Below the pieces are notes generated by a model. That model worked only from the letters and a program-made list of their open reading frames with translations. It had not been told where the DNA came from and made no database searches. A stretch of 17,162 bases of DNA from a virus (taxonomy: Duplodnaviria; Heunggongvirae; Uroviricota; Caudoviricetes): IMG/VR virus record IMGVR_UViG_2563366831_000005, one strand, 5' to 3'. The position numbers and the translations under genes were made by a program. Shown one piece after another: positions 3,018-13,865 of this stretch (its first letter is position 1; every line of letters starts with the position of its first letter).

Positions 3018-3040
3018 AAGAGGGGGTTATTAAGGCGTGA
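2951..3040 (+). pseudogene. 3' remnant of a ybcO-like (DUF1364-type) nin gene, no start codon
   Basis: The frame ending TGA 3038-3040 overlaps the rusA GTG and reads ...[29 protein letters not shown], matching the C-terminus of DLP12 YbcO as recalled. Upstream the same frame hits TAG at 2909-2911 and the similarity is lost. Confidence 0.4.
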
Positions 3041-3399
3041 ATACCTACAATATCACATTACCCTGGCCGCCGAGCAATAATCGCTATTACCGCCATAATC
3101 GCGGGCGCACGCACATCAGCGCAGAGGGGCAGGCATACCGCGAAAACGTCGCCCGAATCATTAAAAACGCAATGCTGGATATCGGCCTGGCTATGCCTGT
3201 GAAAATCCGCATTGAGTGTCACATGCCGGATCGCCGTCGCCGTGACCTGGATAATCTACAAAAGGCCGCTTTTGACGCACTCACCAAAGCAGGTTTCTGG
3301 CTGGATGATGCTCAGGTCGTTGATTACCGCGTTGTGAAGATGCCGGTTGTCAAAGGTGGAAAGCTGGAACTGACCATCACTGAACAGGGAGATGAATGA
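3037..3399 (+). CDS. rusA: RusA Holliday-junction resolvase
   Basis: 120 aa, [103 protein letters not shown]...; GTG start. Essentially the E. coli prophage RusA sequence. Confidence 0.9.
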
Positions 3400-3621: not shown

Positions 3622-4005
3622 ATGCGTGATATTCAGATGGTTCTTGAGCGTTGGGGAGCGTGGGCGGCTAATAATCATGAAGATGTGACCTGGTCGTCCA
3701 TTGCCGCCGGTTTTAAGGGATTAATTCCTTCAAAAGTAAAATCTCGCCCACAATGTTGTGACGATGACGCGATGATCATTTGCGGGTGCATGGCCCGTCT
3801 GAAAAAGAACAACAGCGATTTGCATGATTTATTAGTAGATTATTATGTAGTCGGTATGACATTCATGTCACTGGCAGGTAAGCATTGCTGCTCTGATGGT
3901 TATATCGGGAAAAGGTTACAGAAGGCTGAGGGCATAATTGAAGGGATGTTAATGGCATTAGATATCCGGTTAGAGATGGATATCGTTGTTAATAACTCTA
4001 ATTAA
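3622..4005 (+). CDS. Q: Late-gene antiterminator Q (DLP12 QuuD / phage-21-like type)
   Basis: 127 aa from ATG 3622 ([60 protein letters not shown]...), GGAG ribosome-binding site at 3611-3614. Cysteine cluster consistent with a zinc-binding Q. Sits immediately upstream of the late region. Confidence 0.8.
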
Positions 4006-4145
4006 TATGCCAATTATTTACTAAAAGTTATTAAAAATGGGGCGTTGAGACGCCCCCAAAAATAAAGGGTAATATATAACAGAAGGTTTATATAGTTAGA
4101 AGCAAGGTTGTGCTTCTAAAGGAAGTGGCTTGAGGGAGCCACTTA
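4006..4145 (+). promoter_or_regulatory. Candidate late promoter / Q-utilisation region (PR'-qut position)
   Basis: Position immediately downstream of Q, as in lambdoid phages. AT-rich with TTGAGA and TAATAT/TATATA hexamers, but I could not assign a convincing -35/-10 pair with canonical spacing. Confidence 0.25.
4039..4056 (-). terminator. Intrinsic terminator on the minus strand (distal terminator for the porin transcript)
   Basis: GGGGCGT (4039-4045), loop tgag, ACGCCCC (4050-4056). On the minus strand it is followed by ATTTTTAATAACTTTT; on the plus strand the tail is A-rich, so it is minus-specific. Confidence 0.4.
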
Positions 4146-4185
4146 TATGTTGGGGAGGCAACGCCTCCCGCAACATATCTTTTTC
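4146..4185 (+). terminator. Strong intrinsic terminator on the plus strand (tR'-like, downstream of Q)
   Basis: 15-bp interrupted stem: ATATGTTG-GGGAGGC, loop AAC, GCCTCCC-(g)-CAACATAT (4146-4179), followed by CTTTTT (4180-4185). Abuts the porin stop codon at 4195-4197. Confidence 0.55.
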
Positions 4186-4194
4186 GTAATCAGA

Positions 4195-5292
4195 TTAGAA
4201 CTGGTAAACCAGACCTACAGCAACGATGTCATCAGTGCTTACACCGAGTGCTTTAGTGAAGTCATTTTTGTCAAGCAGGTTGATTTTGTAATCAACGAAA
4301 GTAGACATATTTTTGTTGAAGTAATAGGTTGCACCTACATCAACATATTTGACTAAGTCCTGATCGCCCCATACTCCAAGATCCTTACCTTTAGATTGCA
4401 GGTAAGCAACGGACGGACGCAGACCGAAATCGAACTGATATTGTGCAACAGCTTCGAAGTTTTGGGCTTTATTAGCAACGAAGTGATCAGCAAATACAGT
4501 CATATTCTGGGTTTCAGAATAGGTAGTGGCCAGGTAAATGTTGTTAGCGTCATATTTCAGACCTGCGGCCCAAACTTCTGCATTTTTACCGGAAGCAAAT
4601 ACTTCAGGAAGAACTTTCCCTGCATTAACTTGAGTGTCGGTACGATCAGATTTCGCATAAGTTGCACCGATACCGAATCCTTCGTATTCATAGGTAGCAG
4701 AGAAACCGAAGCCATCACCGTTACCTTCAGTGTAGTTATCGAAATCGCTACGATCGTTTTTGCCTTGGTACTGAGCAGCAAAGTTCAGACCATCAACCAG
4801 ACCAAAGAAGTCGTTGTTACGATAGGTTGCAACACCAGTGGTGCGACCAGTCATGAACACATCTGTTTGGGTCCAGGTATCGCCACCGAATTCTGGCAGA
4901 ACGTCAGTCCACGCACCGATGTCGTATGCTACACCGTAGTTACGGCCGTAATCGATTGAGCCGTAGTCACCGAATTTCAGGCCTGCAAATGCAAGACGGG
5001 TTTTGTCTTTGGAGGAACCTTGAGATTCAGCGCGGTTGCCTTTGAATTCATATTCCCACTGACCGAAACCAGTCAGTTGATCGTTGATTTGGGTTTCACC
5101 TTTGAAGCCAAGACGGGCATAAGTAGTATCACCATCATCTGCATCATTAGAGGAGAAGTAGTGCTTGGCATTAACTTTCCCGTACAGATCCAGCTTGTTA
5201 CTGTCTTTATTATAAATTTCAGCTGCCTGAGCAGACATCGCCATCAGTACTGATGCAGCTACAGCAGAAATTGCCACTGTTAATTTTTTCAT
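4195..5292 (-). CDS. nmpC: Phage-encoded OmpC-family outer-membrane porin (NmpC/Lc type), intact
   Basis: 365 aa with a signal peptide ([23 protein letters not shown]|AEIYNK) and typical porin sequence through the C-terminal ...VGLVYQF. Uninterrupted by any IS. Confidence 0.9.
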
Positions 5293-5880
5293 CGTGAGCC
5301 CTTTTTTTTGAACTATTATTAAAAAATGATGTCACTGCGCGATAAATATTCATCTAATCAATGTGATTATTTCAAGATGTAAGTTTTAGTTTCTCATTTA
5401 ATTTGTGAAGTAGATCTCTATTTTTATCTGAACTTTTTCTATCGAAACCTATTTATGGCTCTTATTTGAACAAAAATAAACCTATTAGCTAATTTATATT
5501 AATGGTTGTTATTTATGGAGGTTCTATAATTCAGCAGTTTAATTTAAATCAACTAAAAATAACGTCTGAAATTATTTATTGGTTATTTGTTGAGGTTTTC
5601 TTATGTATTTGTGGTGGTGTTTTGAACACTCGGTAGCATTCTCATAAATATCATTCAGTGGTTTACGTACGTAAAAAATTGGTTATGCTGTTAAGAGTGG
5701 TTACTTCGTCACACAGCTTAAACCCGCCGTCGAGCTGGTTTTTCCATTTTTTGAGTCTCGATATTAGCTGATAACTCAATACCTGAGTTATTCACTGACT
5801 CCGAGTCTGTTACGTTTCTGCTTTTTTGCGATACGTTGTATTCCCTCAATTTACACCCGCTTTGTCTGCGAGGTGGGGTT

Positions 5881-6096
5881 ATGAAATCCATGGATAAGTT
5901 AACAACGGGTGTCGCCTATGGCACCTCAGCAGGTAGTGCCGGTTACTGGTTTTTACAGCTGCTCGATAAAGTCACGCCCTCACAGTGGGCAGCAATAGGT
6001 GTGCTGGGTAGCCTGGTATTTGGCCTGCTGACGTACCTGACAAACCTTTATTTCAAGATTAAAGAAGATAAGCGCAAGGCTGCGAGAGGTGAATAA
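5881..6096 (+). CDS. S: Class II holin, phage-21 S-type pinholin with dual-start motif
   Basis: 71 aa [71 protein letters not shown], with two transmembrane segments and Met1/Met4 dual starts. GGTGGGG ribosome-binding site upstream. The track's 5836 start is an unsupported extension. Confidence 0.85.
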
Positions 6097-6590
6097 TGCC
6101 TCCATCATTACGAAAAGCCGTTGCTGCTATTGGTGGCGGAGCAATTGCTATAGCATCAGTGTTAATCACTGGCCCAAGTGGTAACGATGGTCTGGAAGGT
6201 GTCAGCTACATACCATACAAAGATATTGTTGGTGTATGGACTGTATGTCACGGGCATACAGGAAAAGACATCATGCTCGGTAAAACGTATACCAAAGCAG
6301 AATGCAAAGCACTCTTGAATAAAGACCTTGCCACTGTCGCCAGACAAATTAACCCGTACATCGAAGTCGATATACCGGAAACAACGCGCGGCGCTCTTTA
6401 CTCATTCGTTTACAACGTGGGTGCTGGCAATTTCAGAACATCGACGCTTCTTCGCAAAATAAACCAGGGCGATATCAAAGGCGCATGTGATCAGCTACGT
6501 CGCTGGACATATGCTGGCGGTAAGCAATGGAAAGGTCTCATGACTCGTCGTGAGATTGAGCGTGAAATCTGTTTGTGGGGTCAGCAATGA
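6096..6590 (+). CDS. R: SAR endolysin (phage-21 R-type lysozyme with N-terminal signal-anchor-release domain)
   Basis: 164 aa. N-terminal Gly/Ala-rich weakly hydrophobic segment ([19 protein letters not shown]) followed by a T4-lysozyme-like domain. ATG overlaps the holin stop (TAATG). Confidence 0.9.
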
Positions 6591-12565: not shown

Positions 12566-13865
12566 TCTCCCGCATATTGCCAGCATGGCCTTTAATGAGC
12601 CGCTGATGCTTGAACCCGCCTATGCGCGGGTTTTCTTTTGTGCGCTTGCAGGCCAGCTTGGGATCAGTCGCCTGACGGATGCAGTATCCGGCGACAGCCT
12701 GACTGCCGGAGAGGCACCCGCGGCGCTGGCGTTATCCGGTGATGATGACGGACCACGACAGGCCCGCAGTTATCAGGTCATGAACGGCATCGCCGTGCTG
12801 CCGGTGTCCGGCACGCTGGTCAGCCGGACGCGAGCGCTGCAGCCGTATTCGGGGATGACCGGTTACAACGGCATTATCGCCCGTCTGCAACAGGCTGCCA
12901 GCGACCCGATGGTGGACGGCATTCTGCTCGATATGGATACGCCAGGCGGGATGGTGGCAGGGGCATTTGACTGCGCTGACATCATCGCCCGTGTGCGTGA
13001 CATAAAGCCGGTATGGGCGCTGGCCAACGACATGAACTGCAGTGCAGGTCAGTTGCTTGCCAGCGCCGCCTCCCGACGTCTGGTCACGCAGACCGCCCGG
13101 ACAGGCTCCATCGGCGTCATGATGGCTCACAGTAATTACGGTGCTGCGCTGGAGAAACAGGGCGTGGAAATCACGCTGATTTACAGCGGCAGCCATAAGG
13201 TGGATGGCAACCCCTACAGCCATCTACCGGGTGATGTCCGGGAGACACTGCAGTCCCGGATGGATGCAACCCGCCGGATGTTTGCGCAGAAGGTGTCGGC
13301 ATATACCGGCCTGTCCGTGCAGGCTGTGCTGGATACCGAGGCTGCAGTGTACAGCGGTCAGGAGGCCATTGATGCCGGACTGGCTGATGAACTTGTCAAC
13401 AGCACCGATGCGATCACTGTTATGCGTGATGCACTGGATGCACGTAAATCCCGTCTCTCAGGAGGGCGAATGACCAAAGAGACTCAATCAACAACTGTTT
13501 CAGCCACTGCTTCGCAGGCTGACGTTACTGACGTGGTGCAAGCGACGGAGGGCGAAAACGCCAGCGCGGCGCAGCCGGACGTGAACGCGCAGATCACCGC
13601 TGCGGTTGCGGCAGAAAACAGCCGCATTATGGGGATCCTCAACTGTGAGGAAGCTCACGGACGCGAAGAACAGGCACGTGTGCTGGCCGAACCCCCCGGT
13701 ATGACCGTGGAAACGGCCCGCCGCATTCTGGCAGCTGCACCACAGAGTGCACAGGCGCGCAGTGACACTGCGCTGGATCGTCTGATGCAGGGGGCACCGG
13801 CACCACTGGCTGCAGGTAACCCGGCATCTGATGCCGTTAACGATTTGCTGAACACACCAGTGTAA
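12546..13865 (+). CDS. C: Head maturation protease / minor capsid protein C (S49/ClpP-like)
   Basis: GTG 12546 (VTAELRNLPHIASMAFNEPLMLEPAYARVFFCALAGQLGI...) in the frame of track ORF 12411-13865; 1320 bp as in lambda C. The track's 12411 start would overlap B by 155 nt and is rejected. Confidence 0.8.
13260..13865 (+). CDS. nu3: Scaffolding protein Nu3, in-frame internal start within C
   Basis: In-frame ATG 13260 (MDATRRMFAQKVSAYTGLSVQAVLDTEAAVYSGQEAIDAGLADELV...) sharing the C stop codon; nested C/Nu3 arrangement of lambda. Confidence 0.65.
   Translation: MDATRRMFAQKVSAYTGLSVQAVLDTEAAVYSGQEAIDAGLADELVNSTDAITVMRDALDARKSRLSGGRMTKETQSTTVSATASQADVTDVVQATEGENASAAQPDVNAQITAAVAAENSRIMGILNCEEAHGREEQARVLAEPPGMTVETARRILAAAPQSAQARSDTALDRLMQGAPAPLAAGNPASDAVNDLLNTPV

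Follow-up and report, generated by a model that had tools for sequence, protein, structure and literature searches.

Morons, in the sense of Hendrix and colleagues, are extra genes that carry their own promoter and terminator and lie between conserved phage genes. The closest described relative of the locus treated here is ipeX, which Castillo-Keller, Vuong and Misra reportedly named in 2006 for the inhibition of porin expression in DLP12 and PA-2. They are said to have mapped it to the untranslated stretch that runs from the nmpC stop codon to a predicted Rho-independent terminator, and to have reported that the sequence downstream of PA-2 lc is identical to ipeX. IpeX is a 167-nt RNA of DLP12 that is made within the porin transcript and then processed (PMC12197685, PMC5069750), and it lowers both OmpC and OmpF (PMC12197685, PMC5069750, PMC8065619, PMC3333887, PMC5861419, PMC8313858). 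The RNA has been detected by RNA-seq in K-12.

The stretch of DNA that was analysed, referred to as the window, is 17,162 nucleotides long and comprises the 3′-proximal part of the early region together with the lysis/late region of an E. coli lambdoid prophage. Its assignment to the DLP12/PA-2 type follows from its gene content. The cluster of hairpins at 4006-4194, in the spacer between the gene for the Q antiterminator and a porin gene, is no late promoter; it consists of the known ipeX tail of the porin transcript together with its terminator. The complete explanation, to which we attach a probability of roughly 85%, is that the spacer is the ipeX tail and terminator of a porin moron, and that the late promoter PR′ has been displaced to the far side of the porin gene, at 5662-5752. 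The layout of the relevant part of the window is as follows.

3037-3399: RusA
3622-4005, plus strand: Q antiterminator, quuD type, 127 aa (Pfam PF06530, phage 21/933W family, E = 9.7e-54)
4033-4194, minus strand: ipeX regulatory RNA region, that is, the 3′ untranslated tail of the porin mRNA from stop codon to terminator
4195-5292, minus strand: porin gene, nmpC/lc type (Pfam Porin_1, E = 1e-156; PA-2 lc annotation)
5293-5660: porin promoter region and right end of the inserted cassette
5662-5752, plus strand: late promoter cassette, by homology (aligns with the post-Q region of phi24B and Sp5)
5881-6096, plus strand: holin, phage 21 S type, first late gene (Pfam PF04971, E = 3.5e-35; essD annotation)

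The lysozyme and Rz genes come after the holin in the stretch from 5881 on, and the order of genes in the cryptic K-12 prophage DLP12 is quuD, nmpC (split by IS5), essD, rrrD and rzpD. DNA identical to the Q gene of the window carries the RefSeq label quuD, and the encoded protein is 79% identical to Q of the Stx phage Sp5, with divergence confined to the last few residues. Rfam searches at gathering as well as permissive thresholds returned no family for the 4006-4194 spacer or for the PR′ leader; the sole Rfam match in the window is an IS3-type frameshift pseudoknot at 495-611.

The identity of the spacer is clear from direct comparison, since 4006-4194 is 98.9% identical to K-12 DLP12 and 99.3% identical to both 434B and PA-2, in each case in the spacer between quuD and nmpC/lc. 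The surroundings agree with the placement of ipeX: the porin gene lies on the minus strand at 4195-5292, it is followed by a terminator at 4056-4033, and quuD adjoins. The preliminary description of this DNA had not recognized the minus strand of the spacer as the published ipeX RNA. Identical or near-identical DNA covering 3950-4250 is found in 2,525 of 5,426 complete E. coli genomes, where it is annotated with quuD and a porin on its two sides, and also in the phages 434B and PA-2. The spacer itself is single-copy in 2,510 of the 5,426 genomes, and with one copy per genome it does not qualify as a dispersed repeat. When one genome per species was scanned for the invariant 24-nt ipeX motif, only E. 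coli records came up.

Five stem-loops lie within 4039-4177. These include all four that the preliminary description had reported, each in the place where it had put them. The features of the spacer are listed below.

4039-4045/4050-4056, minus strand: terminator hairpin GGGGCGT/ACGCCCC, -12.5 kcal/mol
4033-4056, minus strand: intrinsic terminator of the porin/ipeX transcript, with AUUUUU after the hairpin 4056-4039 (scan and Term-seq)
4061-4088, minus strand: putative seed, an invariant and mostly unpaired ipeX segment with complementarity to the ompC RBS region and a MicF-like motif
4073-4094: H4, the fifth stem-loop, a weak hairpin of AU pairs only, -1.3 kcal/mol
4096-4104/4111-4119: H3, TTAGAAGCA/TGCTTCTAA, -9.6 kcal/mol
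4123-4130/4137-4144: H2, AAGTGGCT/AGCCACTT, -10.4/-12.4 kcal/mol
about 4145-4178: H1, ATATGTTGGGG/CCGCAACATAT around GGGAGGC/GCCTCCC, -20.0 kcal/mol on the plus and -21.7 kcal/mol on the minus strand
4145-4184, plus strand: candidate terminator for rightward transcripts leaving Q, H1 (4145-4177) followed by CTTTTTC (sequence only)

The minus-strand RNA from 4200 to 4020 folds with a predicted energy of -62.9 kcal/mol, compared with -32.2 +/- 4.4 kcal/mol for 200 dinucleotide shuffles (z = -7.07), and not a single shuffle (0/200) folds as well. For the plus strand the energy is -64.6 kcal/mol against -42.2 +/- 4.2 kcal/mol for its shuffles (z = -5.28), so that structure far beyond that of shuffled sequence is present on either strand. 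Folding and terminator prediction also bear out the earlier view that the spacer carries terminator features for opposite strands, namely the hairpin 4056-4039 with its U-tract on the minus strand, and H1 with its T-run on the plus strand. The U-runs are selective: AUUUUUAAUAAC on the minus strand comes after the hairpin 4056-4039 only, and UCUUUUUCG on the plus strand comes after H1 (4145-4177) only. The two candidate terminators are thereby arranged in crossed order, each adjoining the stop codon of the other gene, and porin and Q transcripts that end at their own sites would therefore overlap by ~150 nt.

The minus-strand terminator, which had been proposed earlier, is real. A consensus terminator scan identifies it as GGGGCGTCTCAACGCCCC followed by ATTTTTAATA, its tail has five U among the first eight bases, and its stem is invariant across 11 distinct sequences. 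Genome-wide mapping of RNA 3′ ends in K-12 by Term-seq (Adams et al. 2021, PMC7815308, supplementary file 1) lists minus-strand ends at 574367/574366 in 2/3 growth conditions. These positions are the homologues of 4033/4032 in the window and fall at the last U after the hairpin; the terminator is thus used in vivo in the K-12 homologue. A further minus-strand 3′ end in the K-12 data, at 574476, corresponds to 4142 and lies 2-3 nt past H1, a stem that has no U-tract behind it on this strand. This suggests RNA processing or the arrest of an exonuclease after H1.

Sequence variation in the spacer is limited. Mean identity is 96% over 13 chosen sequences, the differences are found mostly in hairpin loops, in one bulge and in the flanks, and the stem positions are 96.6% paired over 11 distinct sequences. 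Searches for covariation in 13 and then in 34 distinct sequences found no double or compensatory changes, because the sequences are too similar. In a larger set, counted within the spacer, 7 of 92 paired columns vary compared with 16 of 97 unpaired ones, which amounts to a trend (p = 0.076; range 0.076-0.15). A lower Fisher value for the depletion of variation in stems (p = 1.4e-4) is not relied on here, as it included flanking coding columns. In one common variant of H3, a G-U pair persists on the minus strand but not on the plus strand; counts of wobble-type substitutions (G-U versus C-A) give one common change per strand and do not single out the strand on which the hairpins act.

The plus strand is a more delicate matter. 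H1 reaches -20 kcal/mol in this direction and is followed by U-CUUUUU-CG, with six U among the first eight bases when counted by hand, and 11 nt separate the end of the T-run from the porin stop codon (4195-4197). The consensus terminator scan does not pick up this site because its long stem has a bulge; the base of the stem is AU-rich and bulged. Among 97 related loci the run is T5 in 58 and T4A in 39, and K-12 Term-seq lists no plus-strand 3′ ends between 568708 and 578444. It is important to point out that Q in the cryptic K-12 prophage may hardly be transcribed, and the absent plus-strand end thus weighs little as evidence. Of the strong plus-strand terminator proposed in the preliminary description, the hairpin and the T-run stand; a terminator at 4145-4184 is plausible by its sequence, but unproven. 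If it works as one, H1 with its T-run might perhaps keep Q transcripts from entering the porin gene in the antisense direction.

Could the hairpins serve mainly to insulate the convergent porin and Q genes from each other, with the effect on host porins being incidental? Terminator-like features on both strands would suit such a role, as would the A-run and T-run at opposite sides of the strongest hairpin and the decay of the plus-strand T-run to T3 in a remnant that lacks Q. A simple insulator, however, has no need of crossed terminators, with which each transcript would traverse the whole spacer. The variability of the plus-strand T-run and the absence of a plus-strand 3′ end from the spacer in the K-12 Term-seq data do not fit it either, and insulation accounts neither for three additional hairpins nor for an invariant unpaired run of 27 nt. 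Moreover, published genetics assign the porin-repressing activity to ipeX DNA (PMC12197685, PMC5069750). Insulation as the main function is therefore unlikely.

The late promoter is placed in another part of the window. The features assigned to the region between porin and holin are the following.

5310-5315 and 5332-5336, plus strand: sigma-E-like promoter, GAACTA, 16 nt, TCACT (read from the sequence)
5662-5667, plus strand: PR′ -35 element, TTTACG
5684-5689, plus strand: PR′ -10 element, TATGCT (Sp5 counterpart TATCAT)
5692-5704, plus strand: PR′ invariant core TAAGAGTGGTTAC, spanning the start site
about 5695-5697, plus strand: predicted PR′ start, transferred from Sp5
5720-5741, plus strand: promoter-proximal hairpin, then T-runs

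When the porin-holin spacer was used as a query, 5661-5743 matched the DNA right after Q in several hundred Stx phages, and in phi24B the matching stretch is annotated as putative late promoter (pR′), qut and terminator. The alignment with Sp5 extends over the -35 element TTTACG, a 16-nt spacer, the -10 element, the invariant core, and the hairpin with its T-run. For Sp5, dRNA-seq has put the PR′ start 258 nt ahead of the tR′ end seen by Term-seq (PMC7547250), and in the Sp5 sequence the distance from TTTACG-16-TATCAT to the T-run of the predicted tR′ is exactly 258 nt. The same compact arrangement is seen in phage 21, the structural model of this Q family, where a terminator occupies +3 to +50. 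The window has a single copy of the core TAAGAGTGGTTAC, at 5692-5704. Among the fetched loci, 95 contain the core, each of them once and on the Q strand; DLP12-type, PA-2, SfII and Stx phage loci are included. The favoured reading is that PR′, the pause/loading region and the first terminator would lie at 5662-5752 and that late transcription would start beyond the porin gene and run into the holin. With PR′ in this position, there is no need for Q-modified polymerase to traverse the porin gene.

The preliminary description had suggested instead that PR′, the Q-utilization site and tR′ might lie in the spacer at 4006-4194, in which case Q-modified polymerase would have to pass along the whole porin gene in the antisense direction before it arrived at the lysis genes. 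This placement follows the rule seen in lambda, phage 21 and the Stx phages, which carry PR′ right after Q, and it could draw on the plus-strand hairpin and T-run at 4145-4184. However, the spacer holds nothing like a promoter: no sigma-70-like site was found in 4006-4194 at 9/12 matches, and the best pair found by hand has a 19-nt spacer. The core is absent from 4006-4194 even when 3 mismatches are allowed, and the spacer does not resemble the PR′ used by this Q family, the core of which sits only at 5692-5704. Every related locus that has the PR′ block together with Q has it on the far side of the porin gene, and the spacer persists in the remnant from which Q is missing. A late promoter within the spacer is thus very improbable, and the proposed antisense passage through the porin gene becomes unnecessary. 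The fallback offered at the time, a late promoter just upstream of the holin (5640-5880), is what the PR′ block at 5661-5743 favours. Hardly credible at all is the notion that the plus-strand ORF at 4147-4356 is a real small gene regulated by the hairpins: it has an ATG at 4147 with GAGGGAG ahead of it and has been annotated twice (as ORF1 in PA-2, and in 434B as a hypothetical protein together with a ribosome-binding site), but it lies antisense to the porin gene with its start codon inside the strongest hairpin, a 1-nt deletion cuts it to 12 codons in the second major haplotype (39/97 loci) and its frame is shifted in a third group, and it was rejected as a gene on account of these truncations and frame shifts in many related loci.

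Comparison of the loci shows a reverse-oriented moron set between Q and PR′, made up of the porin gene, ipeX and their promoter. Q and PR′ adjoin in Sp5 and phi24B and lie apart in the window, where homology to the Stx phage region picks up again at 5661. In CE10 and AR_0017, Q, the spacer, the porin gene and 5640-5743 are shared with the window, and a 933W-like tRNA-gene region takes over from 5743 on; Q, the porin cassette and PR′ thus travel together as a block. In strain CFIAFB20140388, a degraded remnant that lacks Q retains homology only over about 4012-5621, which marks the limits of the cassette. The full arrangement of Q, spacer, porin and PR′ is present in 78 of the 83 loci found via this Q or the ipeX motif; the other five are cut by contig ends or differ downstream. 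The viable phage 434B acquired the whole segment from DLP12 (PMC9119081). Phage Lambda_ev087 was set aside as a comparison, its Q being 89% identical over residues 1-120 only and its arrangement after Q being different.

At the right end of the cassette, CRP sites are annotated in the PA-2 record in the part that matches 5293-5660. The regulatory region of the DLP12 lysis operon reporter fragment '-121 to +650' is the porin-holin spacer (PMC7918800), and the primers of that reporter put the cited lysis-operon +1 at about 5341 of the window and not at 5696. The sigma-E-like site listed above lies at this cited start; it makes a reasonable sigma-E promoter and agrees with the title of the cited paper, which concerns RpoE control. 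Two promoters may feed the lysis genes.

Taken together, a self-contained lysogenic-conversion cassette lies in reverse orientation between Q and its late promoter; it is made up of the porin gene, which runs from 5292 to 4195, its promoter region at about 5293-5660, a 3′ tail rich in structure and the terminator (4056-4033). Lysogens would make ipeX within the porin transcript, and the synthesis of host OmpC/OmpF would drop, so that the phage porin takes their place. The ipeX RNA would be shaped and stabilized by the four hairpins ahead of the terminator, while the segment 4088-4061, just 5′ of the U-rich run and terminator, probably pairs with the ribosome-binding sites of ompC and ompF in a MicC/MicF-like fashion.

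This last step draws on the conservation and predicted pairing of the putative seed. The longest invariant run of the spacer (27 nt, 4063-4089) is found between H3 and the U-rich stretch ahead of the terminator, and the mean unpaired probability of the seed segment, 0.61, is the highest among the ipeX segments. The ompC leader AAATAAAGG....CATATAACAGAGGGTTAATA resembles the plus-strand complement of the seed, AAATAAAGGGTAATATATAACAGAAGGTTTATA. Duplexes were scored in 28-nt windows, as whole-molecule prediction gave unrealistic global duplexes and was dropped. Nucleotides 107-134 of ipeX are predicted to pair with ompC from -31 to -7 in 15 + 8 bp that cover the Shine-Dalgarno sequence, at -24.9 kcal/mol; this energy is matched by 2 of 160 dinucleotide shuffles of ipeX, for a site that was noticed post hoc. 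Control duplexes reach -20.5 kcal/mol with ompA and -14.9 kcal/mol with the leader of the phage porin itself. The Shine-Dalgarno region of ompF matches the seed at 13/14 positions, and the predicted duplex, at -14.2 to -19.1 kcal/mol, is weaker than that of MicF at -27.4 kcal/mol; in duplex energy the ompF region does no better than shuffles. Nucleotides 115-127 of ipeX (UUAUAUAUUACC) agree with nucleotides 16-28 of MicF at 11/12 positions, and this is the part of MicF that pairs with the ribosome-binding region of ompF.

The predicted pairing of the seed with the ompC and ompF leaders as the mechanism of IpeX is suggestive, with chances that at best approach even. The effect of ipeX is reportedly independent of Hfq in the case of ompC, but not of ompF, and a strong duplex with ompC alongside a weak one with ompF would fit this difference. 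Castillo-Keller and colleagues, as paraphrased in a review, reportedly saw no complementarity between ipeX and the ompC leader; the pairing, if true, would overturn that original conclusion. The broader proposal is that IpeX could be a base-pairing antisense RNA acting across ompC (23 bp) and ompF (13/14), with the phage porin escaping and the Q transcript serving as its antisense; we put it forward tentatively, with the odds somewhat against it. A Q transcript that reaches 4184 would be a perfect 150-nt antisense of IpeX, and the lytic switch could neutralize IpeX or be damped by it.

The ipeX tail has already been published, and the only points that may be new are the complementarity to the leaders of the host porins and the way in which the 3′ ends of the Q and porin transcripts cross and overlap. 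The locus nevertheless belongs to a prophage family that is found in almost half of complete E. coli genomes, in which RefSeq labels neither the spacer nor the late promoter, and the present assignments can be used for annotation. A porin cassette in reverse orientation has pushed the late promoter 1.66 kb away from Q, and Q would still find PR′ there. The complementarity to ompC and ompF offers a simple and directly testable hypothesis for the mechanism of IpeX. If confirmed, it would place IpeX among the base-pairing RNAs derived from 3′-UTRs and would explain how the phage swaps the host receptor porin for its own.

Compared with the K-12 DLP12 ipeX, the window has the same locus, strand, sequence and gene neighbours (quuD and the porin), with two single-base differences that both fall outside stems; the porin gene of the window is intact, as in PA-2, whereas IS5 interrupts that of K-12 58 bp ahead of the stop codon. 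The displaced PR′ resembles the PR′-QBE/SDPE-tR′ cassette of phage 21 and of the Stx phages 933W, Sp5 and phi24B (StxS RNA) in that promoter, initial transcribed region and hairpin with T-run are all kept, but it differs from the Stx phages, where the -35 element overlaps the 3′ end or last codons of Q, in the distance between Q and PR′. In the window and in PA-2, a viable phage identical to the window over 5640-5770, the promoter-proximal hairpin carries a G-to-T change and folds at -5.8 kcal/mol compared with -12.0 kcal/mol in K-12. MicF and MicC, which act as antisense RNAs against the translation of ompF and ompC, are separate chromosomal genes, whereas ipeX forms the 3′ tail of an mRNA for a phage porin, its pairing is a predicted one, and beyond the short motif it has no sequence homology to MicF. 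With morons, finally, the porin cassette shares its own promoter region, gene and terminator, its presence or absence between Q and PR′, and its occurrence in varied backgrounds or alone. Unlike them, it holds a regulatory RNA in its 3′ tail in addition to a protein gene, and its terminator and the candidate terminator of Q are crossed, so that an overlap of about 150 nt would arise between the 3′ ends of the two convergent transcripts.

K-12 Term-seq places a stable minus-strand RNA 3′ end at 574476, which corresponds to window 4142 and is additional to the 3′ end at the terminator (PMC7815308). This position lies 2-3 nt past the strongest hairpin of ipeX, the RNA made from the 3′ tail of the porin mRNA, and suggests that the transcript is cut near 4142, which could free an RNA of ~109 nt that extends from hairpins H2 and H3 through the invariant segment to the terminator. 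The tail of this minus-strand terminator and the stop codon of the antiterminator gene Q are also flanked by an AT-rich imperfect inverted repeat (3990-4033; 16 nt arms, 81% complementary), which is probably without significance.

Immediately past the porin start codon, a sigma-E-like promoter can be recognized on the plus strand (GAACTA-16 nt-TCACT, 5310-5341), and its position matches the '+1' that follows from the primers of published reporters for the DLP12 lysis operon. Transcription starting here would give rise to a leader of ~540 nt that crosses PR', the Q-dependent late promoter. In the late leader, the hairpin closest to the promoter carries a G-to-T change at 5734-5738, which turns GCGGG into GCTGG (compare 6253-6279 of comparison locus L001); the GCTGG form is common to the window, PA-2 and some strains. 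The computed folding energy of the hairpin changes from -12.0 to -5.8 kcal/mol, and the weaker structure might render late transcription more leaky in the absence of Q.

A sequence related to window 5720-5741 recurs on the plus strand at 12612-12633 (GAACCCGCCTATGCGCGGGTTT, followed by TCTTTTG), within the coding sequence of a lambda-C-like head protein (...LEPAYARVF...). It agrees at 21 of 22 positions with the first post-PR' hairpin of Stx phage Sp5 (L017 669-690), a likeness too close to be due to chance.

The ALIL pseudoknot is the frameshift element of IS3-family transposases. An Rfam search detected this element (RF01497, 120 bits) on the minus strand at 495-611, which places an IS3-family insertion sequence close to the window's left edge.

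Two phages with related Q or PR' sequences likewise harbour extra genes in reverse orientation close to this junction: Lambda_ev087 carries a lipocalin gene, Blc, after Q (L019 1879-2752), and SfII carries a gene encoding 340 amino acids upstream of its PR'-like block (L020 121-1143). The surroundings of Q and PR' appear to be a place where reverse morons insert repeatedly.
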